The position numbers and the translations under genes were made by a program. A stretch of 64,000 nt of DNA from a virus: positions 1-64,000 of the IMG/VR virus record IMGVR_UViG_3300034284_003265. One strand, 5' to 3'. Within the stretch, counting starts at the first letter, position 1; every line of letters starts with the position of its first letter. The notes beneath the pieces are model-generated. The model saw nothing but the letters and a program-made list of their open reading frames with translations, was not told where the DNA came from and did not search any database. This document shows, in pieces, positions 16,094-27,838 of the stretch.

Positions 16094-16243
16094 ATGTTAT
16101 CGTTGAATGAAAGTCAGTTGATGTTATTGGGTTGGGTGATTACAATAGGCAGCAGCATTATTGTGATGGGGTTGACGTTATTGATGATGTATTGTATATA
16201 TAGTTTATATAGAATTGTAAAGAATTTTAGCAATAAAAATTGA
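16094..16243 (+). CDS. small membrane protein (49 aa)
   Basis: MLSLNESQLMLLGWVITIGSSIIVMGLTLLMMYC... hydrophobic helix. Confidence 0.5.
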   Translation: MLSLNESQLMLLGWVITIGSSIIVMGLTLLMMYCIYSLYRIVKNFSNKN

Positions 16244-16276
16244 TATTTGTATATATTGATGATATATATTAACGTA

Positions 16277-16360
16277 ATGAGAGTACATTATACAAATATT
16301 AAACGTTGGAATACCTTTACAAATTGTGAAGATAGAGGTATGGCGGCTGATATTGTGTAA
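16277..16360 (+). CDS. attenuator leader peptide 1 (MRVHYTNIKRWNTFTNCEDRGMAADIV)
   Basis: short ORF whose 3' end is the 5' strand of an antiterminator; codons match tRNA array 1. Confidence 0.8.
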   Translation: MRVHYTNIKRWNTFTNCEDRGMAADIV

Positions 16361-16424
16361 ATGTAGATCTAAAACCCAAACAATATCAACCGTCACCAAA
16401 AAAAGTGACGGTTTTTTTATTTTT
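16341..16424 (+). promoter_or_regulatory. attenuator 1: antiterminator 16341-16356/16380-16395, mutually exclusive with terminator 16388-16424
   Basis: TGGCGGCTGATATTGT pairs with ACAATATCAACCGTCA (15/16); terminator AACCGTCAC/GTGACGGTT + T tract. Confidence 0.85.
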
Positions 16425-16428
16425 GGTG

Positions 16429-16547
16429 TTGACGTTCTTTGGATGTGTGGTAAAGTAATTAAACAGTGAACGAAGTAAGTAGTTCATTAAATGATGAAAA
16501 AGAAATTTTAAAAGTCAGTTGACAACAGTGAAAGCTGTGATAGACTG
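16429..16547 (+). promoter_or_regulatory. two sigma70-type promoters upstream of tRNA array 1
   Basis: TTGACG..TAAAGT and TTGACA..TAGACT. Confidence 0.7.
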
Positions 16548-16651
16548 AGTGAAGAGTAAGGAAGGTTTGAAACTCCATCTGTTGAACCTCCTCCAGTGAA
16601 CCGAGTAATCGGCGATAAGGTAAAGTCTGGGAAAATCAATTGATTGGTCCG

Positions 16652-16679
16652 TGGGTGTTATGCTGAAATACAGAACCCA
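16652..16679 (+). repeat. 28-nt element identical to 24600-24627, in the leader of tRNA array 1
   Basis: TGGGTGTTATGCTGAAATACAGAACCCA. Confidence 0.95.
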
Positions 16680-16740
16680 TAGGGCGATGACAGTATTACT
16701 GAGGTGATTACTGTGAATGTTGAAGTAAAGAAAATTTAAC

Positions 16741-16822
16741 GCCGTTGTGAGTTGAGTGGTTGAAAACACCAGTTTTGTAAACTGGAAAATCATCGCAGGT
16801 TCGAATCCTGTCAACGGCTCCA
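16741..16822 (+). tRNA. tRNA-Thr(UGU)
   Basis: cloverleaf, CCAGT-TT TGT AA-ACTGG, TCCA end. Confidence 0.9.
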
Positions 16823-16834
16823 GATTATAGTAAT

Positions 16835-16910
16835 GGTGATATTGGTGTAACAGTTAGCACCTGAGTTTGTGAAACTCAAGGAACGAGGGCAGCACTCGTA
16901 TATCACCCCA
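16835..16910 (+). tRNA. tRNA-His(GUG)
   Basis: G-1 present, TT GTG AA loop, atypical T-loop GGCAGCA, CCCA end. Confidence 0.85.
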
Positions 16911-16918
16911 ATTTTAAT

Positions 16919-16994
16919 TACCCTATCGTCTAGGTTTAGGACGGATGTGTTCTCTGAGACATCAACCTTGGTGAAAATCCAAGTGGGGTAACCA
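16919..16994 (+). tRNA. atypical tRNA-Gln(CUG)/Glu(CUC)-like gene with a 10-nt anticodon loop
   Basis: TACCCTA/TGGGGTA ACCA; GATGT-GTTCTCTGAG-ACATC. Confidence 0.55.
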
Positions 16995-17000
16995 ATTTAT

Positions 17001-17078
17001 GCTTCGGTGGTGAAAATGGATTTATCACGCAACGCTACGAACGTTGAGTTTGGGGTTCGAATCCTCACTGAAGCGCCA
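17001..17078 (+). tRNA. tRNA-Arg(ACG)
   Basis: CAACG-CT ACG AA-CGTTG, GCCA. Confidence 0.9.
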
Positions 17079-17089
17079 ATTTACATAAT

Positions 17090-17166
17090 GGCCTCATCGT
17101 CTAATGGCAAAGGACGGTAGACTTTCAATCTACAAATCGTGGGTTCAATTCCCCGTGGGGCTACCA
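17090..17166 (+). tRNA. tRNA-Glu(UUC)
   Basis: GTAGA-CT TTC AA-TCTAC, ACCA. Confidence 0.9.
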
Positions 17167-17174
17167 TTTTAAAA

Positions 17175-17260
17175 GTGACGAGGGCAACAAAGAGACTTAA
17201 ACCCAAAAGATTGAAGGAGCCCTGCATGCCGGGTAATTCCTACTGGGGTAATCTCGTCAC
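17175..17260 (+). ncRNA. stem-closed non-tRNA RNA
   Basis: GTGACGAG/CTCGTCAC termini. Confidence 0.55.
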
Positions 17261-17270
17261 AATATTTAAC

Positions 17271-17347
17271 GGTCGCATCGTCTATGTGTGATAGGACACC
17301 ATCCTCTCAAGATGGAGAATAGGGTTCAAATCCCAATGCGACTACCA
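17271..17347 (+). tRNA. tRNA-Glu(CUC)
   Basis: CCATC-CT CTC AA-GATGG, ACCA. Confidence 0.9.
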
Positions 17348-17357
17348 TTTATAGTAT

Positions 17358-17435
17358 ATCCGCCAATGTTCCAAGGATTAGGCGACAGGCTCTCCAAAAG
17401 CCCGTGGGTAAGTTCGATTCTTACGGTGGATGCCA
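17358..17435 (+). tRNA. tRNA-Trp(CCA)
   Basis: GGCT-CT CCA AA-AGCC, GCCA. Confidence 0.85.
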
Positions 17436-17442
17436 TTTTTCA

Positions 17443-17556
17443 AATACATTAGGTGAAGGCAACGAACGTAGCTTAACTGGTAAAGCAACCGCACGAATAA
17501 GCGGGAGTCATTCAGTTCGAATCTGAATCAATAGTTGAAGTAGTAAGTAATGTATT
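17443..17556 (+). ncRNA. tRNA-like core inside an extended interrupted stem
   Basis: D-arm TAGCTTAACTGGTAAAGC, T-arm TTCAG-TTCGAAT-CTGAA, outer stem AATACATTA/TAATGTATT. Confidence 0.6.
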
Positions 17557-17647
17557 GACACTGATAGACATTGAAGGTTATAATCTGACGAGGTTATAAT
17601 TAGTAGGTGGAACAAGCATAGTGAAATCCAGTAAACATTTTTTTAAT

Positions 17648-17721
17648 TCTCGGATCGTATAATAGTATTACCTTCGGTTGTTACCCGAATGATAAGGGTG
17701 CGATTCCTTTTCCGAGAGCCA
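17648..17721 (+). tRNA. tRNA-Asn(GUU)
   Basis: TTCGG-TT GTT AC-CCGAA, GCCA. Confidence 0.9.
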
Positions 17722-17729
17722 TTTTCAAT

Positions 17730-17855
17730 TCCAGAGTAGCTCAATGGTAGAGCATTCGGCTGTGGGCCATAAAGTATTATTTAATAGAGAGTGCAAATCT
17801 CATAAGGCCAAAGTTAACCGAAATGTTGAAGGTTCGAGCCCTTCCTCTGGAGCCA
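17730..17855 (+). tRNA. tRNA-Asn(GUU) with a 51-nt insertion in the anticodon loop
   Basis: canonical body; removing 17762-17812 restores TTCGG-CT GTT AA-CCGAA. Confidence 0.75.
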
Positions 17856-17860
17856 TTTTC

Positions 17861-17965
17861 AAGTGGGACTAGTAATTGATAAAAAACAAATCAGATAGAT
17901 AAGCAAGTTCGAAATTGTTTGACCCGTGTGAAATCCTGATGTAAGTTTAGATGAAAGTCCCTTTT
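17861..17965 (+). ncRNA. stem-closed non-tRNA RNA
   Basis: GGGACT/AGTCCC termini, ATCAG/CTGAT inner helix. Confidence 0.45.
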
Positions 17966-17972
17966 AATTTTT

Positions 17973-18089
17973 TATATGATGTATGGAGTATGCTGATTAA
18001 GGGTTAGGCAGTTGATCAAATTGCAATAGTATGAACATAAAGTGCCTTAAGAGATTTAAATAATTTCATTGTTCATCATACATTATATA
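17973..18089 (+). ncRNA. stem-closed non-tRNA RNA
   Basis: ATATGATGTATG-like 5' end pairs with CATACATTATAT; inner TTAAGGG/CCTTAA. Confidence 0.5.
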
Positions 18090-18095
18090 TTTTTT

Positions 18096-18182
18096 GGGAG
18101 TATCGCATAGCAGCAATTGCAAGAGACTGTAAATCTCTCGGCCGAAAGGCCTACGTAGGTGCAAGTCCTACTGCTCCCACCA
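18096..18182 (+). tRNA. tRNA-Tyr(GUA)
   Basis: AGAGA-CT GTA AA-TCTCT, long variable arm, ACCA. Confidence 0.9.
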
Positions 18183-18187
18183 TTTTT

Positions 18188-18275
18188 GGGTTATTATACT
18201 ACTAAAGACGTAGCTCTGACTGTAAATCAGAAGGCCATAGTGCCTGGGTAGGAGCATTACCTACATAACCCACCA
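18188..18275 (+). tRNA. tRNA-Tyr(GUA)
   Basis: TCTGA-CT GTA AA-TCAGA, T-loop AGCATTA, ACCA. Confidence 0.85.
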
Positions 18276-18280
18276 TTTTT

Positions 18281-18430
18281 ATTCGGTGTCAGCAGGCTCA
18301 CGATGCTGAAGAAAGAGTTGATAATTGCAAGTATCAATGTCGTGGAGAGTGAGTGGGTTGATCTATACAAGATATCGTGCTATAGGTCGTAATGATGTCT
18401 GTTAAACATTCCCGTAAACCAACATCGAAT
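18281..18430 (+). ncRNA. stem-closed non-tRNA RNA
   Basis: ATTCGGTGT/ACATCGAAT termini; CACGAT/GTCGTG inner helix. Confidence 0.5.
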
Positions 18431-18435
18431 TGTTT

Positions 18436-18516
18436 TTGACAGGTGCTAGTGCGCATGGCGTGGTAAAGGAGCGGGCGACTCTGTTCCGAGAAGGTTCGAT
18501 TCCTTTGACTTGTCAA
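18436..18516 (+). ncRNA. tRNA-like RNA with a T-arm but no canonical anticodon arm
   Basis: TTGACAGGT/ACTTGTCAA, GAAGG-TTCGATT-CCTTT. Confidence 0.55.
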
Positions 18517-18528
18517 TTTATTTTTAAT

Positions 18529-18604
18529 CCCAGTTAAGCTAACCTAGTGAAAGCGCAAGTCTGAAGAACTTGAGAGGTTGGGGCGGAACCAACAACTGGG
18601 ACCA
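18529..18604 (+). tRNA. tRNA-Phe(GAA)
   Basis: CAAGT-CT GAA GA-ACTTG, T-loop GGCGGAA, ACCA. Confidence 0.85.
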
Positions 18605-18620
18605 TTTTTTAAGAAAGATG

Positions 18621-18648
18621 TTGACGGAACTATAAAGTGTGGTAAGAT
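18621..18648 (+). promoter_or_regulatory. internal sigma70-type promoter
   Basis: TTGACG-16-TAAGAT with extended TG. Confidence 0.65.
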
Positions 18649-18690
18649 GATTATAGTTCGTTGACAATGTAAGATGAAATTTTTAATAAT

Positions 18691-18769
18691 GGAAGTGAAG
18701 CTACAATAGACGGGCATCTGACTCTTAATCAGAATATTCGTGTGGGGGCAGTACCCACCACTTCCACCA
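18691..18769 (+). tRNA. tRNA-Lys(CUU)
   Basis: TCTGA-CT CTT AA-TCAGA, T-loop GGCAGTA. Confidence 0.85.
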
Positions 18770-18772
18770 ATT

Positions 18773-18886
18773 TTGAGTGGCGTATGAAAGATTCAATCGG
18801 TTCCATAAGGATTTAAAGAAGATATTCTTTTTTTCCGGGTATAAAAAATCCGTAATGGTCTCATAACTACGAGATATCCCGCTCAA
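18773..18886 (+). ncRNA. stem-closed non-tRNA RNA
   Basis: TTGAGTGG/CCGCTCAA termini; GGATTT/AAATCC inner helix. Confidence 0.5.
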
Positions 18887-18896
18887 GTTAATTTAT

Positions 18897-18974
18897 GGAT
18901 CGGTAACTCAACTGGATTAGAGTATTCGGCTCTTACCCGAAAGGTTGTGGGTTCAAATCCCACCCGGTCCACCA
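18897..18974 (+). tRNA. tRNA-Lys(CUU)
   Basis: TTCGG-CT CTT AC-CCGAA, ACCA. Confidence 0.9.
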
Positions 18975-19068
18975 TTTTGTAAGTCTAGCGGTAACTCGTA
19001 ACCGATATTTGCCGGGGTTGAAATCCTAGGGATTAAAGAGTGACAGAGGGAAAGACCCACCAATTTAT

Positions 19069-19147
19069 GGAGTCAAAGCCACAATAGACGGGCAGCCGGC
19101 TTTTAACCGGACGATTCGTGTGGGAGCATTACCCACTGGCTCCACCA
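19069..19147 (+). tRNA. tRNA-Lys(UUU)
   Basis: CCGG-CT TTT AA-CCGG, T-loop AGCATTA. Confidence 0.85.
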
Positions 19148-19485
19148 ATTTAATGGGTAACTGACCCCATAAGTGACTGCCGACCGGTACAATCGGTAAA
19201 ACACAGAGACGGCGTGGAGAGCACAGCACCAATTTTTGTTATTTGACAAAGCTAGTCAAGAAGGTTTGTATTGGGTCGCTCCTGATACTATTTCCTTGAA
19301 GATAGATACGAATATAGTTTAAGAGAAGAACGCCGGCGTGTGCTGGAGGCTTGAGGTGCAATTCCTCAATGAGTGTAGAACGTAATTTTACGTGAAATCC
19401 TTTAAAAAATCCAATTTCGTTATGTGTTTGATATAATATTCACGGTGTGAAAAGCTTCCGTGGCAAAAAATCAAATACATAATAT

Positions 19486-19564
19486 GGGGGTATAGTGTAA
19501 TTGGCTAACATCGCACACTGTCACTGTGCAGACTTGCTCGGTTCGAATCCGGCTACCCTCGCCA
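19486..19564 (+). tRNA. tRNA-Asp(GUC)
   Basis: GCACA-CT GTC AC-TGTGC, GCCA. Confidence 0.9.
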
Positions 19565-19571
19565 TTTCAAT

Positions 19572-19645
19572 TGGCTATTAGCTCAATAGTAGAGCATTCG
19601 GCTGATAACCGAAAGAACACGGGGCGGTACCGTGATAGCCAACCA
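19572..19645 (+). tRNA. tRNA-Ile(GAU)
   Basis: TTCGG-CT GAT AA-CCGAA, T-loop GGCGGTA. Confidence 0.88.
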
Positions 19646-19652
19646 TTTTAAC

Positions 19653-19729
19653 GCACTCGTAGCTCAATTGGATAGAGCAACTCGTTTCTACCGAGAAGGT
19701 TGCAGGTTCAAGTCCTGCCGGGTGTGCCA
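19653..19729 (+). tRNA. tRNA-Arg(UCU)
   Basis: CTCG-TT TCT AC-CGAG, GCCA. Confidence 0.9.
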
Positions 19730-19734
19730 TTTTT

Positions 19735-19808
19735 GCCTTCATAGTATAAAAGTATTACACATCATTGGTAATGATGAAACGCAGGGGCGGTACCTGCTGG
19801 AGGCTCCA
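19735..19808 (+). tRNA. tRNA-Thr(GGU)
   Basis: CATCA-TT GGT AA-TGATG, T-loop GGCGGTA, TCCA. Confidence 0.88.
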
Positions 19809-19861
19809 TATTAAAAATATATTTAGAAGTGTGGGGATTATATATATAGTAAAATAAATTT

Positions 19862-20665
19862 ATGGAATCTACAAACGCTCCCCAAACATTTTCGTTTACT
19901 AATAAAAAGGTATTATATGCAATAATTGCTGTAATTGTATTGGTAATTTTTGGATTATACACATTATTTAGTTCATTGAATAGAGATAATAAAGCTTTAA
20001 CTAAGAAGGTTGTTAATCAGACTGAGATTGTTGTAAATCAAAGTTTATTAATTACCAATTTAAATCAAAAGAATGTGGAATTGGCGACGTTATTGAAGAG
20101 TTATGACAATAAATTGAGTATATTGCATACTAATTTAACTCAGTTACAAAGTATTACCGAGAAGTTAAAAGTATCATCTGATGAAAAGGATGTGAAGATT
20201 AAAGATTTGTCTCAAGAAAAAACTGCGCTTGAATCTGATTTAAAGTCTTTGCGTAATACGCTTACAAAAATGACTAAAGAGATCGTAGATTTGAGTGATG
20301 AACTTAAAGTTGCTAAGACTGACAAAGATCAAAATGATCTTGTAGCTAAGATTGAAGAGCTTACGAAAGAAAGAGATTTTTTGAAGAACAAGATTGCTGA
20401 GTATGAAAAGATCATAGAAGAATTGAAGAAAGAAAATGCACTTTTGGCTCAAAATTTGCGACAAAATCTGAAAAAAGATGGATATGAATTTCACAACAAA
20501 TTGGGAGAGTGGCCAAAAGGTGCAGAAGTGTTGATGAGGATTGCTAAGCAAAATGCACAAAAGATTTTAGATGAAGTTAACAAAACTGATGAGCCAAAAG
20601 AAGAAGAAAAACCTAAAAAAGTAGGTTTTTGGAAGCGTATTTTTGGTTCGGGTGAAACTGAATGA
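19862..20665 (+). CDS. membrane-anchored coiled-coil protein
   Basis: N-terminal TM helix, long heptad region, C-terminal amphipathic GFWKRIFG. Confidence 0.8.
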   Translation: MESTNAPQTFSFTNKKVLYAIIAVIVLVIFGLYTLFSSLNRDNKALTKKVVNQTEIVVNQSLLITNLNQKNVELATLLKSYDNKLSILHTNLTQLQSITEKLKVSSDEKDVKIKDLSQEKTALESDLKSLRNTLTKMTKEIVDLSDELKVAKTDKDQNDLVAKIEELTKERDFLKNKIAEYEKIIEELKKENALLAQNLRQNLKKDGYEFHNKLGEWPKGAEVLMRIAKQNAQKILDEVNKTDEPKEEEKPKKVGFWKRIFGSGETE

Positions 20666-20671
20666 TTTAAT

Positions 20672-20745
20672 GCCTGTTTAGTTTAGTGGTAAAACGGTTG
20701 TTTCGTAAACAACGATCACAGGTTCGATTCCAGTAACAGGCTCCA
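20672..20745 (+). tRNA. tRNA-Thr(CGU)
   Basis: GTTGT-TT CGT AA-ACAAC, TCCA. Confidence 0.9.
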
Positions 20746-20752
20746 TATTAGT

Positions 20753-20827
20753 GTCTCGTTGGTCGAGTAGTTAGGCAGCTGTCTGCAAAACAGCATTAGG
20801 TTGGTGCAAATCCAACACGGGACTCCA
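20753..20827 (+). tRNA. tRNA-Cys(GCA)
   Basis: GCTGT-CT GCA AA-ACAGC, TCCA. Confidence 0.9.
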
Positions 20828-20844
20828 TTTTTTATATATTTATT

Positions 20845-21321
20845 ATGTATATGATATTATTGAGAAATTTACTCTCTGAGGCGCCTATTGGGTTAACAGT
20901 ATATAGAGGGGTTAATCCAGCTTATGGAGATGTAGGTTTGGGTATCAATAGTACCAAGATAGGTGATAAATTAGTTGCGACATTGGGGCCTAATCATACT
21001 GATAATTTAGATGTTGCTAAGCGATTTGGCAAACAGATAATAACTACTAAATTAAATGGATCTGGATTGGAATTGGCTCATTATAATGATATAATTAATT
21101 TATATAAGCAGTATGAAAATATGTTACCGCCTGGTCTTGCAAAACAAATCAAATATAGTAGTGGACAAGAACAATTGAATCTAATACAATTAGCTGGTAA
21201 AGAATTGCGTAATATATTGAGTAAGAAATATGGATATATCAAGAGTCCGCTAGCGGTGAGTGATGCTAATTATTTAAGTCAAAAAGGATTAACAGGAGAT
21301 TTGTATATACCGTTGAGATAA
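20845..21321 (+). CDS. hypothetical protein, possibly ADP-ribosyltransferase fold
   Basis: LRNLLSE leader; VYRG...HTDNLDVAKRF pattern. Confidence 0.5.
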   Translation: MYMILLRNLLSEAPIGLTVYRGVNPAYGDVGLGINSTKIGDKLVATLGPNHTDNLDVAKRFGKQIITTKLNGSGLELAHYNDIINLYKQYENMLPPGLAKQIKYSSGQEQLNLIQLAGKELRNILSKKYGYIKSPLAVSDANYLSQKGLTGDLYIPLR

Positions 21322-21340
21322 TCAAACTACTTATTTAGGT

Positions 21341-21514
21341 ATGGAAAGATCTAATCTCTATCAAAAGTTTTTGCAGTTAAAAAATGAAATAGAAAAACAC
21401 AAATGGATAGAGAGTGAGAAAAAAGGTAATGATATAGGTTTTGAGCGAGCATTAGTTGATTGGATGTCTAAACATAGAAATGGTTGGTGTGAGAATATAA
21501 AGCAGAATAAATAA
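21341..21514 (+). CDS. DUF4032-like small protein (57 aa, not in ORF track)
   Basis: EIEKHKWIESEKKGNDIGFERALVDW motif. Confidence 0.7.
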   Translation: MERSNLYQKFLQLKNEIEKHKWIESEKKGNDIGFERALVDWMSKHRNGWCENIKQNK

Positions 21515-21534
21515 AATTAATATATTTATAATAT

Positions 21535-21963
21535 ATGACCAAATCCGATTTTAAAAAAATTATAAAAGAATTGATGCTAGAAGTACTTTCCGAAGATTAT
21601 AAAGGTGAACCAAATCACGCAGCAGAAGTAGAAAGTGATAAATTAACCGCAACTCTTTCTGAAGATGACACCATTAAAGACATTAAGGATTTAGAGAAGT
21701 TGTTGAAGAACCCGGATCCAAGTAGAGTAAAAGATTATGGTTCTATTGATAAGTATAAAAAAATGTTAATAGCTAAAATTGCTAGATTAAAGAAACAAAA
21801 AAATGAAAGTGGCGATCCTTTTAGAGACATTGTGAAAAAGTATGCTAGTCTTTATAGAGATAGTGAATTATCCCGTAGAGAGAAGGAAGATTATTTTAAA
21901 TGGTTGCAAACAAATCAGCCTGAAAAATTCAAAAAGGTTGTAGATAAGATTAAAAAGAAGTAA
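21535..21963 (+). CDS. hypothetical (possible head-internal) protein
   Basis: KKIIKELMLEVLSE N-terminus; charged. Confidence 0.7.
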   Translation: MTKSDFKKIIKELMLEVLSEDYKGEPNHAAEVESDKLTATLSEDDTIKDIKDLEKLLKNPDPSRVKDYGSIDKYKKMLIAKIARLKKQKNESGDPFRDIVKKYASLYRDSELSRREKEDYFKWLQTNQPEKFKKVVDKIKKK

Positions 21964-22066
21964 AAATATAGGTTTAAATTTAAACAAGTGAAACGATTAA
22001 TGTAAAAATTAATCGTTTTATTTTTTATTGACAATCGACCGTTAACAAGTATAATAAAAGTATAGT

Positions 22067-22390
22067 ATGAATGAATTAAGTAAAATTGATATGGCGAATT
22101 TAGTCTTTAGTGAAGACAAAAAGATTAAAATCAAAAATGTATTATGTGATAAGTATGGTGCGACTGACGTTCAATATAGAGACCTATCATATGGTATTTG
22201 TATTGATGTAGTTGGAACTGACAGTTTTAGATTTGTCAAGAATGCCATAATGAAAACATTGGACGTTCATGAAGAAACGTTATCTGTTTTGGGCGAAAGT
22301 AAGAGAAGCATGAAAGCTTCTTATGTTTATTTGCCTGAAAAAGATAAAGCATTGAACAAACGTCTTAAAAAGTTAAAGACTACAGTCTAA
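22067..22390 (+). CDS. hypothetical protein
   Basis: behind a consensus TTGACA..TATAAT promoter. Confidence 0.7.
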   Translation: MNELSKIDMANLVFSEDKKIKIKNVLCDKYGATDVQYRDLSYGICIDVVGTDSFRFVKNAIMKTLDVHEETLSVLGESKRSMKASYVYLPEKDKALNKRLKKLKTTV

Positions 22391-22537
22391 AAATAATAAG
22401 TTATAATATTATTATAATAACTATATATAAATTAAATAATCAATTTCGAAAGGTGCATTTTTGACTTTTCGGATAACGTTAAGCTGTTCTTAACGTCGTT
22501 AGTAAACATAAACAAACAAAATAAAGGATAGTTAAAT

Positions 22538-23248
22538 ATGAAGAAAGTATTAGTATTATTGTCAGTATTGGCCGCTCTAGCAGTATCAGCTGGCGACAAC
22601 TCAAACCTCTCAGTAGAAGCTGGGTACAACAACCAATACATCGTAAATGGTGTAGCTCGTTCCGAGGGATCAGCATTTGTTGGTGTAGGTGCTGTAAAGA
22701 GTTTAAAGTATGCGGATGTATACTTGGGTGGTACTCTATTGGCTAATGGTGATCAAGATCAATCACACTGGACGTTGGGTGCTGGTAAGGAAGTTAGTGT
22801 ATGGAAGGATGTATTTTCTGCCCGTGCTGACGCTACTGTAACTCGCCATCAAGCTGGTAGTTTTGGTATTCCAAACAGTACTGAATTTGGTGTTAAGTTG
22901 GCTCTACCAAACAAGTTGGCAACTCCATATGTACGTGGTGCATTTGACATTGACCTAGACCAAAAGGGTGCATTCGTTGGTTTGGAACGTGCTCAAAAGT
23001 TGCCATTTGGTTTTGTAATTACTCCCGCTGTTGAATACGGTAAGGTATTTGGCGTATCGAGTGATTATACAGCTGTAAATGCTAAGGCATCATTGACTCG
23101 TCCATTCGAAACTTCATTTGGTGTATTGACTCCATTTGCTACTGTTGGATGGTATGATAATAATTTCAAGGTTGGCAATTATAATTGGGCAACCCGTGAA
23201 TTTAGTGGAGATGTAGTATATTCTGGTGGTTTGAGATTAACCTTCTAA
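22538..23248 (+). CDS. outer-membrane beta-barrel protein (TIGR02001-like)
   Basis: signal peptide, YNNQYIVNG motif, alternating strands, C-terminal GLRLTF. Confidence 0.75.
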   Translation: MKKVLVLLSVLAALAVSAGDNSNLSVEAGYNNQYIVNGVARSEGSAFVGVGAVKSLKYADVYLGGTLLANGDQDQSHWTLGAGKEVSVWKDVFSARADATVTRHQAGSFGIPNSTEFGVKLALPNKLATPYVRGAFDIDLDQKGAFVGLERAQKLPFGFVITPAVEYGKVFGVSSDYTAVNAKASLTRPFETSFGVLTPFATVGWYDNNFKVGNYNWATREFSGDVVYSGGLRLTF

Positions 23249-23272
23249 TCTAAACCAGAATAGTGTATGATG

Positions 23273-23300
23273 ACCCGCTTAGAAATAAGCGGGTTTTTTT
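23273..23300 (+). terminator. intrinsic terminator
   Basis: ACCCGCTTA/TAAGCGGGT + T tract. Confidence 0.85.
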
Positions 23301-23339
23301 ATTTTAATAGTCTATTTATAATTAAAGAAAGGTTTATTT

Positions 23340-24293
23340 ATGTCATCAACAAGTGGATCAAGTGGTAGTAGCGGAATAGGCACTTCCTCATTAAAAACAA
23401 TAGTTCTTCAATCGAAATCTGTAGTAACTAAATTTATATCTAATATATTGGTACCAAAAGTGATACATAGTACGGCAGTTGGTAGTAGTGGAATAGGTGG
23501 CAGTAGTGGATCTTCTGATAGTGTACGTACTAATTGGATATCGAATATTAAATCCACACTGATAAAAATGATGGTAGCCAGCAAAGACCGTAGTTTATTC
23601 AGTGCATTTATCCAATCTACTTTTTCTTGGGTTCGAAATCCTGCTTCTTGGGTGACATCTTATAAATGGACAGGTACTGCTGCTGGTATAAATGGACTTG
23701 GTGGTGTTGGAGGTGGAACTCTTATTACTAGCAAGCATGTCTTATTGTCTGCACACGTTCCTTATTTGCCAAATTCAGAAATCTTTTTTGTTAACGATAA
23801 CAATGTGACTTTCAAATACAACATCATCAAGATCGACAAGATTGATGGAAGTGATATTGCAATTGGAACGCTTGATCGATCAATTGATAGTAGTCTTAAG
23901 ATATATTCAGTATTACCAGACAACTGGCAACAATATATCAAAACTGAAATTAATAGTGTGATGGGGGTACAATTCATAACTTTACGGTTACCTGTGTTGT
24001 TCCTCAATCAAGACAAAAAAGTTTCAATTGGAGATATGACACGATTGATTGATGCAGTTGCTGATGTAGAATCTTCAGTATTTGGTACATCACAATCGTA
24101 TTATGAAACACAAAGAGTTGGTGATTCTGGAAATCCAATATTTGTGCAGGTAGGCAGTGAACTGGTACTGTTGGGTGCGTGGTATAAAGTTGGATCTTTT
24201 GCTTGGGTAATCAGTAGAAAAACTCAAATTGAGTCTATTATTGGTCAAAAACTGAACGTAATTAATATGACTGGATTTGAGAAGGTATCCTGA
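23340..24293 (+). CDS. trypsin-like serine protease
   Basis: GGTLITSKHVLLSAH, DIAIG, GDSGNP catalytic-triad motifs. Confidence 0.85.
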   Translation: MSSTSGSSGSSGIGTSSLKTIVLQSKSVVTKFISNILVPKVIHSTAVGSSGIGGSSGSSDSVRTNWISNIKSTLIKMMVASKDRSLFSAFIQSTFSWVRNPASWVTSYKWTGTAAGINGLGGVGGGTLITSKHVLLSAHVPYLPNSEIFFVNDNNVTFKYNIIKIDKIDGSDIAIGTLDRSIDSSLKIYSVLPDNWQQYIKTEINSVMGVQFITLRLPVLFLNQDKKVSIGDMTRLIDAVADVESSVFGTSQSYYETQRVGDSGNPIFVQVGSELVLLGAWYKVGSFAWVISRKTQIESIIGQKLNVINMTGFEKVS

Positions 24294-24333
24294 AAGTTAA
24301 TGAAGTTTATTTGAAAATTATTTAATAATTTTG

Positions 24334-24362
24334 TTGATTTTGAATTTCAAACACTATATATT
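24334..24362 (+). promoter_or_regulatory. promoter of leader 2
   Basis: TTGATT-17-TATATT, ATG 9 nt later. Confidence 0.6.
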
Positions 24363-24371
24363 ATTACGAAT

Positions 24372-24425
24372 ATGAATTTAATTTCACAACCTAGTCAAGC
24401 CAGTCAACTCCCATCCGGAAGTTGA
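24372..24425 (+). CDS. attenuator leader peptide 2 (MNLISQPSQASQLPSGS)
   Basis: stop codon overlaps the antiterminator strand; codons match tRNA array 2. Confidence 0.8.
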   Translation: MNLISQPSQASQLPSGS

Positions 24426-24495
24426 GTGAGAGGTTGTTTGCTATAAAGATCCAACCCGTCACTCTACGAAAAAAGAATGACGGGTTTTTGATTTT
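24424..24495 (+). promoter_or_regulatory. attenuator 2: antiterminator GAGTGA-GA-GGTTG/CAACC-CG-TCACTC versus terminator AACCCGTCA/TGACGGGTT + T tract
   Basis: mutually exclusive hairpins sharing 24453-24460. Confidence 0.8.
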
Positions 24496-24500
24496 AGTGG

Positions 24501-24528
24501 TTGACAATTTGAGAAGGTATGGTAAATT
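24501..24528 (+). promoter_or_regulatory. sigma70-type promoter upstream of tRNA array 2
   Basis: TTGACA-16-TAAATT with extended TG. Confidence 0.65.
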
Positions 24529-24599
24529 AGAAATATAACGAACGGGGTTGAAACTCTATCTGATGTCCCCAACGAAAGTTAAAACATTTGATCGGTCAC

Positions 24600-24627
24600 T
24601 GGGTGTTATGCTGAAATACAGAACCCA
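24600..24627 (+). repeat. 28-nt element identical to 16652-16679, in the leader of tRNA array 2
   Basis: TGGGTGTTATGCTGAAATACAGAACCCA. Confidence 0.95.
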
Positions 24628-24668
24628 ACTGGCGATAATTAAAATAAGTTAAATAACAATTTTTAAAT

Positions 24669-24743
24669 GGGCGGTTAGCTCAGTGGAAGAGCAGGACCTT
24701 TACACGGTCAAGGCCAGAGGTTCAAATCCTTTACCGCCTACCA
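24669..24743 (+). tRNA. tRNA-Val(UAC)
   Basis: GACC-TT TAC AC-GGTC, ACCA. Confidence 0.9.
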
Positions 24744-24750
24744 TTTTAAT

Positions 24751-24824
24751 CGGTCACAAGTGTTACGGTAGCATACGTGCTTTGGGAGCATGGGGAGACA
24801 GTTCAATTCTGTCGTGGCCGACCA
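24751..24824 (+). tRNA. tRNA-Pro(UGG)
   Basis: CGTGC-TT TGG GA-GCATG, C1-G72, ACCA. Confidence 0.9.
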
Positions 24825-24831
24825 TTTTATT

Positions 24832-24916
24832 GGGCATATGATGTAATTGGCAGCCATGCGAGTCTTAGAAGCTCGTGGAGAAATCCGTGGGGGTTCAAGT
24901 CCCTCTATGCCCACCA
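24832..24916 (+). tRNA. tRNA-Leu(UAG)
   Basis: CGAGT-CT TAG AA-GCTCG, long variable arm. Confidence 0.9.
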
Positions 24917-24924
24917 ATTTAAAT

Positions 24925-25002
24925 GGTTACGTAGACCAACTGGAAGGAGTCGTCTATCTCAAAAATAGAATAGTGCTGGTTCGAATCCAGTCGTAACTAC
25001 CA
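24925..25002 (+). tRNA. tRNA-Leu(CAA), short variable arm
   Basis: TCTAT-CT CAA AA-ATAGA, ACCA. Confidence 0.85.
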
Positions 25003-25010
25003 ATTTCAAT

Positions 25011-25095
25011 GGGTGTGTGGATGAGGGAAACTGGCACAACCGCAATACTTAAGATATTGTATCCTATGTAGGTTCGAATCCTACCACACCTACCA
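25011..25095 (+). tRNA. tRNA-Leu(UAA)
   Basis: CAATA-CT TAA GA-TATTG, enlarged D region, ACCA. Confidence 0.8.
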
Positions 25096-25104
25096 ATTTT
25101 ATAT

Positions 25105-25197
25105 GGATGATAGGCAGATATAAGCTGGCTGCACTAGTCTTGAAAACTAGGTCCGTCTAAAAAACGGAGGTCCGGGCAGTACGGACATCATCCGCCA
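25105..25197 (+). tRNA. tRNA-Ser(UGA)
   Basis: CTAGT-CT TGA AA-ACTAG, long variable arm, T-loop GGCAGTA, GCCA. Confidence 0.88.
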
Positions 25198-25281
25198 TTT
25201 TAATACAACTCCACTTGACAATGGAACCGAAGACTGATAATATCGTCTCTTGAAGAAATCGGAGTTTGTCAAAAGATTTAT

Positions 25282-25374
25282 GGAGGTGACGTAGATAGTC
25301 AGGTTTCTACAGCAGTTTGCTAAACTGCCGTGGTCTAAAAGCCACTGAGGGGGCAGCACCCTTCGCCTCCGCCA
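25282..25374 (+). tRNA. tRNA-Ser(GCU)
   Basis: GCAGT-TT GCT AA-ACTGC, long variable arm, T-loop GGCAGCA. Confidence 0.88.
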
Positions 25375-25377
25375 TTT

Positions 25378-25451
25378 GCGGGTATAGCTTAGTGGTAAAG
25401 CGCCAGTCTTCCAAACTGGCAAGGTGAGTTCGATTCTCACTACCCGCTCCA
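25378..25451 (+). tRNA. tRNA-Gly(UCC)
   Basis: CCAGT-CT TCC AA-ACTGG, GCG...TCCA. Confidence 0.92.
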
Positions 25452-25458
25452 ATTTAAC

Positions 25459-25532
25459 TGGGGATTTGCATAATGGTAGTGCGGCAGACTTTGAATCTGC
25501 TTGTGGTGGTTCGATTCCATCATCCCCAACCA
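25459..25532 (+). tRNA. tRNA-Gln(UUG)
   Basis: GCAGA-CT TTG AA-TCTGC, U1-A72. Confidence 0.92.
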
Positions 25533-25539
25533 ATTTAAT

Positions 25540-25615
25540 CGGAATGTAATGTCAATAGTAGACGGCCTGGTTTGGAGCTAGGAGGTTGCAGGTGCGAGTC
25601 CTGTCATTCCGACCA
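25540..25615 (+). tRNA. tRNA-Pro(UGG)
   Basis: CCTGG-TT TGG AG-CTAGG, ACCA; A37. Confidence 0.85.
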
Positions 25616-25622
25616 TTTTATA

Positions 25623-25738
25623 TATCAGACAACGGTAGAGGTTTGAACTTGGCTAGGTCCGAAACAATAACCAACGGCTGTGTTCGGCTAATAATCTGTG
25701 GGTTAAATATGCCCATAAAACCGCCAAGGTGTCTGGTA
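25623..25738 (+). ncRNA. stem-closed non-tRNA RNA
   Basis: TATCAGACA/TGTCTGGTA termini. Confidence 0.5.
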
Positions 25739-25792
25739 ATTTTTTGTTTTTTGATTTGACTTATACTATATATTGGTGTAAGATTTTTAAAT

Positions 25793-25867
25793 GGGCTGTT
25801 AGTGATAGTGGTAGCACGGGAGCTTTGCAAGCTTTAGGGAAGAGTTCGATTCTCTTACGGTCCACCA
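25793..25867 (+). tRNA. tRNA-Ala(UGC)
   Basis: TT TGC AA loop, G3:U70, ACCA. Confidence 0.9.
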
Positions 25868-25919
25868 TTTTAAATTAATGTATGTTGGTTAGTTTCAACT
25901 ATATATTAATGTTGAGATC

Positions 25920-25993
25920 GCGGGTATGATGTAGTGGTAGCCTGCAACCTTGCCAAGGTCGATGTGCCGGTTCGATTCCGGCTACCCGCTCCA
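25920..25993 (+). tRNA. tRNA-Gly(GCC)
   Basis: ACC-TT GCC AA-GGT, GCG...TCCA. Confidence 0.9.
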
Positions 25994-27453: not shown

Positions 27454-27838
27454 GGGCGCGTACTGGTATCGATTTAATAGTACACGTATGTTAGGCACGT
27501 AGAGGATGATAGTTGGCCTCTTTAATACACCTATCGAAATATTAACTGCTGAAGATAACGTAGTTAGCTATGACTTCTCTTACGATGAAGTAGTAGCCCT
27601 TGCAGCCTAAGTTGTTGCACATTCAATACAATGAAGTCTGATATTTGTGTTGAGTGTAAATTATTGGACTGGACCAAATATTTGATTTGCGTAAATGGTC
27701 GAGATATTAGTAAATCTTAAGGGTAATATTTTTAGATATTTTTCATTATTACTCCCTAACAATTTAAAATATATAAGCGTGTAGTCTGATGTAGGTTATC
27801 TGTTAAACACGGCGGTTCAACTCCGCCCGCGTCCACCA
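27454..27838 (+). ncRNA. ssrA: tmRNA; tag (A)AEDNVVSYDFSYDEVVALAA
   Basis: GGGCGCG/CGCGTCC-ACCA with G3:U70, T-arm GGCGG-TTCAACT-CCGCC, ATTAACT-GCT resume site, tag ends ALAA-stop. Confidence 0.93.

Follow-up and report, generated by a model that had tools for sequence, protein, structure and literature searches.

The virus record IMGVR_UViG_3300034284_003265 describes an uncultured lake phage, and its first 64 kb, the stretch analysed here and hereafter called the window, carry two arrays of transfer RNA (tRNA) genes. Each array is preceded by a short control region, module 1 upstream of array 1 and module 2 upstream of array 2. Reading the sequence, we found the same order of elements at both arrays, as an initial annotation had proposed: a promoter (P1, or P1' in module 2), a short open reading frame (ORF; leader 1 and leader 2), an antiterminator at the ORF end, an intrinsic terminator and a further promoter downstream (Table 1). 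The earlier coordinates of the leader ORFs, terminators and downstream promoters were correct to within 1 nucleotide (nt). In both modules, a conserved structured leader, which we call element X, lies 3' of P2 and before the tRNAs.

Since the ATG of leader 1 stands just 8 nt past the P1 -10 element, its messenger RNA (mRNA) would be near-leaderless. The -10 block of P1 is kept in 13-14 relatives, and the -35 element is variable. P1 and its ATG context resemble other gene starts of this phage, which makes little use of Shine-Dalgarno (SD) sequences: an SD-like motif precedes only 6 of the 65 long ORFs, so leader ORFs lacking one are normal here, and many ORFs start a few bases past AT-rich promoter-like motifs. 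The motif TATATTTAT is found 5-15 nt 5' of many gene starts, for example at 20835, 21521, 28067, 33401 and 58441. The phage appears, from its sequence, to use short or absent 5' leaders and a late-type promoter motif of its own.

As paralogues, the two control regions can be aligned over P1, the terminator stem, P2 and the structured array leader of ~110 nt, but not over the ORF segments. Both terminators have GC-rich stems (9 bp in module 1 and 13 bp in module 2) followed by a T-run, and among the terminators of the genome the stem motif CCGTCAC is restricted to the two leader modules. The copies of element X are 86% identical over 56 nt, and their stems covary among relatives. As a unit of ~110-130 nt, element X consists of a covarying stem around the conserved loop TTGAAACTCYATCTG and a second covarying hairpin, GGGTG...AACCC. 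It matched no Rfam family, and a different conserved leader takes its place in the relatives L027, L174, L183 and L185. Element X could be a processing or a processive-antitermination element.

Table 1 Features of the two control regions and tRNA arrays (window coordinates).
Feature	Position	Strand	Description
Promoter P1	16240-16268	+	-35 TTGATA 16240-16245, 17-nt spacer, extended -10 TGA-TATATA 16260-16268; read from sequence
Leader ORF 1	16277-16360	+	27 codons, ATG 16277, TAA 16358-16360
Region 1, module 1 (anti-antiterminator arm)	16280-16307	+	Pairs with region 2 and stop-codon region in minimum free energy fold
Region 2, module 1	16342-16356	+	GGCGG-c-TGATATTGT; last six ORF codons, ends 1 nt before stop codon
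Region 3, module 1	16380-16394	+	ACAATATCA-a-CCGTC; 3' part is terminator 5' arm; with region 2 forms antiterminator
Intrinsic terminator 1	16388-16420	+	AACCGTCAC / GTGACGGTT and T-run
Promoters P2 and P3	16429-16546	+	P2 TTGACG 16429 / TAAAGT 16451; P3 TTGACA 16519 / TAGACT 16541; conserved in relatives
Element X, copy 1	16563-16690	+	Structured array leader between P3 and first tRNA
tRNA array 1	16741-20827	+	ARAGORN, Rfam, synteny
Promoter P1'	24334-24362	+	TTGATT 24334-24339, 17-nt spacer, TATATT 24357-24362; ATG 9 nt downstream
Leader ORF 2	24372-24425	+	17 codons, ATG 24372, TGA 24423-24425
Region 1 and inner hairpin, module 2	24387-24425	+	CAACCT 24387-24392; stem TCAACT 24404-24409 / AGTTGA 24420-24425, inside ORF
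Region 2, module 2	24424-24436	+	GAGTGA-ga-GGTTG, begins within stop codon
Region 3, module 2	24452-24464	+	CAACC-cg-TCACTC, terminator 5' arm; with region 2 forms antiterminator
Intrinsic terminator 2	24453-24491	+	AACCCGTCAcTCT / AGAaTGACGGGTT and T-run; paralogous to terminator 1
Promoter P2'	24501-24528	+	TTGACA 24501 / TAAATT 24523; invariant in relatives
Element X, copy 2	24548-24640	+	Structured array leader before array 2
tRNA array 2	24669-25993	+	Val, Pro, Leu x3, Ser-like x2, Gly, Gln, Pro-like, Ala, Gly

Alternative pairings at the end of each leader ORF

Region 2 has two alternative partners in each module. In module 1 it can pair with leader codons 2-10 or with 16380-16394; in module 2 its partner is CAACCT in the ORF or CAACC-cg-TCACTC at the terminator. 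The leader transcripts fold better than shuffled sequences, with z = -4.07 for module 1 and -4.37 for module 2, and the 1:2 anti-antiterminator pairing is present in the minimum free energy folds of both. We then measured the strength of the antiterminators as the energy gained (ddG) when the terminator 5' arm may pair with the 45 nt upstream of it, compared with shuffles. Antiterminator 1 yielded a ddG of -8.7 kcal/mol (z -5.5) and antiterminator 2 one of -13.4 to -14.1 kcal/mol (z -4.7 and -3.4). The 11 other intrinsic terminators of the genome, taken as controls, gained 0 to -8.3 kcal/mol, all with z > -1.7. With 80 nt upstream instead, leader 2 gave z = 0.13; in that construct 1:2 wins over 2:3, and the position used for the terminator arm was off by 2 nt.

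The segment logic of both modules, as read from the sequence, is that of a four-segment trp-type attenuator, in which a ribosome terminating at the stop codon would mask segment 2. The leaders are only ~140 and ~120 nt long. No riboswitch, T-box or leader family of Rfam (E up to 1) overlaps either of them; a match to the Rfam Trp_leader at 23218-23302 (E 0.4, under the gathering score) lies outside both.

Reading frames and pairings are retained in relatives

The family comprises ~70 sequence variants overall, from dozens of lake and river samples. Module 1 is represented by 47 distinct nucleotide variants on lake and river phage contigs, all of which retain the ORF. The leader 1 variants form three peptide groups that have in common just a short core around IKR-x-W and T-x-F; between the groups the order of the peptide is rearranged and its composition is retained. 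Module 2 is represented by ~22 variants on such contigs. It is found in the window's form (19 nucleotide variants, 7 peptide variants) and, in other lineages, in two further forms with ORFs of 24-26 codons and a different terminator. Conservation of the leader ORFs, on which the initial annotation had made its proposal depend, is borne out: in all variants an ORF starting with ATG is retained, and it ends within or next to segment 2, though the stop codon shifts. Across five sequence designs, the stop lies in or adjoins region 2 in every variant examined. Insertions and deletions within the ORFs are all in frame (3, 6 and 6 nt), and over leader 1 core codons 5-15 the variable sites are distributed 5:1:10 over codon positions 1:2:3, a bias that the sequence filter may inflate.

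The RNA pairings are retained as well. Across 13 relatives, the central 1:2 helix of module 1 is 95% paired, and for the 2:3 pairing 98.7% of cells are paired, with the arms fixed and the loop free in sequence and length. Equivalent 1:2 helices are built from different sequences in peptide groups B and C. GGCGG and GACGG variants of region 2 both retain pairing with CCGTC, and the GGCGG-TGATATTGT motif is conserved even where the encoded residues differ. RNAalifold identified compensatory changes in the antiterminator of module 1. The terminators are 98% paired in relatives, terminator 1 with two compensatory pairs. In module 2, the inner stem covaries (C-G to T-A) in L084, L085 and L087, and regions 2, 3 and 4 change jointly (GATGACG / CGTCATC) in L085 and L087. 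Segment 2 in the L185 and L174 lineages nearly duplicates the terminator 3' arm, with z of -3.2 and -6.6. Every family member with enough flank has a tRNA array downstream.

In the L005 lineage (L005:7019-7219; also L006, L024 and L025), a 66-codon ORF with an 18-nt tandem duplication enters the leader 2 frame and shares the leader 2 stop, antiterminator and terminator. We considered whether leader 2 is a mere remnant of a gene's 3' end and rejected this, as the 66-codon form is confined to that one lineage and the common state is a short ORF that has an ATG of its own.

Leader composition parallels the division of amino acids between the arrays

ARAGORN, Rfam and synteny together support the amino-acid sets originally assigned to the arrays, namely T,H,R,E,W,N,Y,F,K,D,I,C for array 1 and V,P,L,S,G,Q,A for array 2, with no Met. 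The leaders were said to mirror these sets. Leader 1 does hold all 12 array-1 types and no S, Q, P or L; the criterion was selective, however, in that V (twice), G, A (twice) and an internal M are present and had been left out of the statistic. In codons 2-18, the zone where a stall would free region 2, 16 of 17 specify array-1 amino acids. The residues of leader 1 that are not its own fall mostly in the codons of region 2, where pairing dictates the sequence and stalling would be of no use. Leader 2 takes 14 of its 16 residues from L,S,Q,P,A,G, as claimed; it is rich in Ser, Gln and Pro and contains three Ser-Gln pairs. Apart from these repeats, neither leader has tandem codon runs. The 24-26-codon forms of leader 2 have 20/23 to 23/24 array-2 residues, with all seven array-2 amino acids and at most four others.

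None of 213 genomic short ORFs of 22-32 residues covers all 12 array-1 types, and among 204 ORFs of 15-20 residues leader 2 is the sole one with at least 75% array-2 residues. A simulation with independent residues gave a probability of ~0.003 for the presence of all 12 types, ~0.05 for at least 20 own residues of 26, and ~1e-4 to 5e-4 for at least 14 of 16; it led us to reject nucleotide composition alone, or proteome amino-acid usage, as the cause of the leader compositions. Nor does the division follow simple chemistry, with Ile, Phe, Trp, Tyr and Cys assigned to leader 1 and Leu, Val and Ala to leader 2.

We scored all 50,388 possible 12/7 splits of the 19 amino acids on how well they separate the two leaders. 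In the window, 147 of the 50,388 do so no worse than the real array split (p = 0.003). In the L072/L185 genome, where both leaders are strongly diverged from the window's, the real split is the single best (p = 2e-5), and in L174 it ties for best (p = 1.8e-4, or 8e-5 with each residue type counted once), values that are not independent of one another because these lineages are homologous. The third lineage has leader 2 peptides of largely different sequence. Despite the shared ancestry, the composition match holds up under extensive sequence turnover.

RNA contigs cross both terminators

Four river and freshwater metatranscriptomes cover the arrays, with the protein genes between and beside them at or near zero, which argues against DNA carry-over. 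Contigs show neither transcript ends nor ratios, and uncovered stretches were not counted as silence. RNA cover begins near the start of P1. One contig links the leader 1 ORF (to 16365) with element X (from 16561), and positions 24443-24495 are covered by contigs in two runs, the contigs reaching upstream through the P2 -10 region. The initial annotation had asked whether all array transcripts start at the downstream promoters. They do not: since RNA contigs span both terminators, there are transcripts that start upstream of P2 and pass them. The RNA thus shows that read-through of the terminators occurs; that it is regulated, we infer. The extra sigma70-type promoters annotated just past both terminators (P2 and P3, and P2') are confirmed and are conserved in relatives.

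Genome context and tRNA inventory

The record is 91,193 bp long with 34% GC, and its baseplate, SbcCD-like and helicase genes mark a tailed phage. Neither DNA nor protein searches of the phage collection INPHARED, made with the region and one neighbouring gene, matched a deposited phage; dozens of relatives are present in IMG/VR and in metagenomes from lakes and rivers. Ten neighbouring ORFs scanned against Pfam gave a methyltransferase and coiled-coil noise, and nothing else.

With default settings, ARAGORN reports 22 tRNAs and one transfer-messenger RNA (tmRNA). A further six tRNA-like genes came from Rfam and relaxed ARAGORN: Phe-gaa, Lys-ttt, Thr-ggt, Leu-taa, another Pro-like gene and an Asn gene that carries a 51-nt insert. 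A His gene (~16838-16913) and two Ser genes (~25105-25197 and ~25283-25375) were missed by both programs, and we accepted them by eye, from their anticodon arm and acceptor stem and because canonical His and Ser genes occupy syntenic positions in relatives. In these His- and Ser-like genes a GGCAGNA-type loop replaces the TTCRA T-loop, and an RNA contig spans 25192-25377. No tRNA-Met was found in the 91-kb contig.

The gene order of array 1 is Thr, His-like, a gene with an 8-nt anticodon loop (ctct), Arg, Glu twice, Trp, Asn twice, Tyr, Phe, Lys twice, Asp, Ile, Arg, Thr twice and Cys; the array also carries structured spacers that are not tRNAs and one ORF of 267 residues. The tRNA-like gene with the four-base anticodon call ctct lies at 16919-16994, is not reported by the Rfam tRNA model, and is kept at the equivalent position in many relatives (L028, L029, L031, L033, L039 and L040). 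Positions 17730-17855 hold a tRNA-Asn(gtt) with the 51-nt insert at the anticodon (17762-17812); we rejected an assignment of this gene as tRNA-His, as ARAGORN and the sequence identify it as Asn-gtt interrupted by 51 nt. In RNA contigs of all four metatranscriptomes 17761 is joined to 17813, and L018 has an uninterrupted second Asn gene. The join reflects either splicing or transcripts of insert-free relatives.

In three runs, RNA contig depth is 470-1000x at positions 17504-17763 and 10-40x elsewhere in the array. With a TTGACA-N17-TATAAT promoter (~17556) before it and a T-run at its end, ahead of tRNA-Asn, this segment suggests an abundant small RNA that is not a tRNA. Downstream of array 2, the tmRNA at 27454-27838 encodes a 20-residue tag ending in ALAA, and the relatives L016 and L019 keep it with a variant tag. 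A tRNA with a CUA anticodon (labelled 'Pyl(cta)' by ARAGORN, amber-suppressor-type) lies between the arrays of the contig G002 of a relative (L186:12901, L187:401).

Proposed mechanism and rival explanations

We propose that P1 gives rise to a near-leaderless transcript whose short ORF would be translated while RNA polymerase proceeds. A ribosome that reaches the stop codon would cover region 2, the terminator (3:4) would form and the transcript would end. A ribosome delayed in the first two thirds of the ORF would cover region 1 and leave region 2 free to pair with region 3, so that the terminator is blocked and the array is transcribed. With no translation, 1:2 would form and the transcript would likewise terminate. 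Because leader 1 and leader 2 are built almost wholly from array-1 and array-2 amino acids, respectively, each switch would report the decoding speed of its own tRNA set, and the outcome would be an array-specific negative feedback on tRNA supply. Attenuation is here an addition to attenuator-independent transcription from P2. Leader translation, stalling, regulated read-through and the cause of tRNA shortage are steps that we infer.

That both modules are ribosome-mediated leader-peptide attenuators, taken as a claim by itself, we regard as probable on the structural and comparative evidence above. For the whole proposal, in which the attenuators would gate P1 read-through into the tRNA array with array-matched feedback on tRNA supply, we see the case as evenly balanced; given the match between codon content and arrays, it is nonetheless the best single explanation. 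In a further version, which we think possible and rather doubtful, the modules would form a counter-defence circuit: a host anticodon nuclease or late phage demand would deplete one tRNA set, and only the matching array would be induced from P1. The leaders would then act as 'test strips' that sample 10-12 and 5-7 tRNA species simultaneously. The link to an anticodon nuclease is purely conjectural.

Several observations weigh against array-matched feedback. The initial annotation had assumed roughly one codon per tRNA, and as a strict inventory this fails in relatives, through loss of Cys and Trp codons, a Gln mismatch, and Val, Gly, Leu and Gln tRNAs in array 1. The Cys codon is lost in four loci that retain tRNA-Cys; L141 has no Trp codon and retains tRNA-Trp; the Gln codon CAG in the leader and Gln-ctg in array 1 are anti-correlated, CAG occurring where the gene is absent and not where it is present; and Leu-tag/Leu-cag, Gly-tcc and Val-tac occur in array 1 of some relatives whose leaders have not changed accordingly. 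The covariation of codons and anticodons that had been suggested as a check is therefore upheld in one case, a TTG Leu codon in leader 1 where array 1 carries Leu-caa (L027 and L174), and over Cys, Trp, Gln, Leu, Gly and Val taken together is mixed or negative. Parts of both peptides are fixed by RNA stems; a CCC/GGG hairpin, for example, yields Pro and Gly. The 66-codon ORF that has leader 2 as its C-terminus in the L005 lineage is unremarkable in composition. Most leader codons occur once, for which low sensitivity is expected, and a theoretical study (PMC1183508) predicts low sensitivity without the runs of regulatory codons that classical leaders use; another report describes single codons in the his leader peptide as measurably altering attenuation (PMC4046918). 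The helices of close relatives, 82-99% paired, are nearly invariant, and because they hardly vary the covariation shuffles there are statistically uninformative, so divergent lineages were used instead. The lineages that replicate the composition match share ancestry, as said. Finally, the conserved P2 and P3 sit directly behind the terminators, so that the arrays are transcribed regardless of the attenuator, and the attenuated transcript may be a minor contribution.

The main rival, which we judge unlikely, is that the modules are real ribosome-coupled attenuators sensing general translation (ribosome availability, leaderless initiation or elongation speed), with codon sets that have no meaning for the arrays and a composition match that is a by-product of RNA constraints, peptide chemistry and shared ancestry. 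All structural evidence fits such a sensor equally well. It would also account for single-codon covariation with tRNA genes that is absent or contradictory, for the use of the same switch by the ordinary 66-codon ORF of the L005 lineage, and for residues dictated by RNA stems. It does not readily explain why the real 12/7 split falls in the top 0.3%, is the single best and falls in the top 0.02% in three lineages, among them one with mostly different leader 2 peptides, why nucleotide composition does not reproduce the bias, or why the residue sets are not simple physicochemical classes.

Two other explanations dispense with attenuation or with translation. The ORFs could be micropeptide genes, or the transcripts from P1 to the terminator trans-acting small RNAs, with the terminators insulating arrays driven from P2 and the alternative pairings non-regulatory. 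P1, ORF and terminator are indeed self-contained as a unit, peptide 1 shows amino-acid-level conservation of its core residues, P2 is conserved, and Sinorhizobium is described, in two reports, as having attenuator-derived small RNAs and functional leader peptides (PMC6614838, PMC7968998). This explanation nevertheless looks improbable to us: the antiterminators are outliers among the terminators of the genome, compensatory changes occur in five designs with the stop always at region 2, a tRNA array follows every family member with enough flank, peptide order is rearranged across groups while composition is kept, and RNA contigs run on through the terminators. A factor-dependent switch without translation, in which a phage or host protein or RNA stabilises one structure and the ORFs are incidental, would suit the absence of SD sequences and the fact that conservation is strongest at the RNA level, as where GGCGG-TGATATTGT is kept while residues change. 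We consider it very improbable, as at least three divergent groups retain the ORF in every variant, with indels in frame and the stop at region 2, the phage as a whole does without SD sequences, and neither leader matches an Rfam riboswitch, T-box or leader family.

Relation to known systems

Leader-peptide attenuation is textbook knowledge for amino-acid biosynthesis. Like the trp, his, thr, leu, ilv and pheA attenuators, the two modules have a promoter-proximal short ORF, four segments with mutually exclusive 1:2, 2:3 and 3:4 pairings, a stop codon at which a terminating ribosome would mask region 2, an intrinsic terminator ahead of the regulated genes, and, in overall composition, leader codons that may relate to the product. 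Unlike them, they precede phage tRNA genes instead of genes for biosynthetic enzymes, and have no tandem runs of a single codon: 10-12 (leader 1) or 5-7 (leader 2) amino acids are represented, mostly one to three times each. They differ further in their near-leaderless mRNA without an SD sequence, in the strong promoter right behind the terminator, and in showing no sequence or Rfam relationship. No attenuator is known to use such a multiplex leader design. In the multivalent thr and ilv leaders and in the leader ORFs of Salmonella mgtA and mgtCBR (PMC3641672), more than one amino acid or leader ORF is likewise read by one type of switch. Those systems sense two to three amino acids, or proline and Mg2+, for protein-coding operons, whereas here two paralogous switches divide nearly the whole amino-acid alphabet in parallel to two tRNA arrays. 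With T-boxes, the modules would share a decision between terminator and antiterminator that reports tRNA status. A T-box, however, binds uncharged tRNA directly, is ORF-free and ~200-300 nt long, and controls aminoacyl-tRNA synthetase and amino-acid genes; no match to one was found here.

Bacterial ribosomal RNA (rRNA) and tRNA operons have tandem P1 and P2 promoters regulated at initiation, by guanosine tetraphosphate (ppGpp) with DksA and by the initiating nucleoside triphosphate (iNTP). The modules resemble them in placing a regulated upstream promoter unit and a second promoter before stable-RNA genes; the operons lack a translated leader and a terminator. Phage tRNA arrays are seen as compensating for codon usage or as replacing tRNAs cut by host anticodon nucleases. 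Work on these two roles asks why phages carry tRNAs, and the feature shared with the present phage is a large tRNA set, here for 19 amino acids. A related computational study is PMC12482277. A limited full-text literature search returned no description of attenuators at tRNA genes or phage tRNA arrays, of a leader-peptide attenuator in a virus, or of a leader that samples many codons instead of a run of one.

If the proposed array-matched feedback is true, phages would control the supply of their tRNAs by feedback, and would do so separately for two sets. Nature would then have provided a compact multiplex reporter of decoding speed. The finding would also give a way to approach the question of why the tRNA sets of large phages are nearly complete, whether for their own demand or as a defence against tRNA cleavage, in a family that is common in lake and river viromes.

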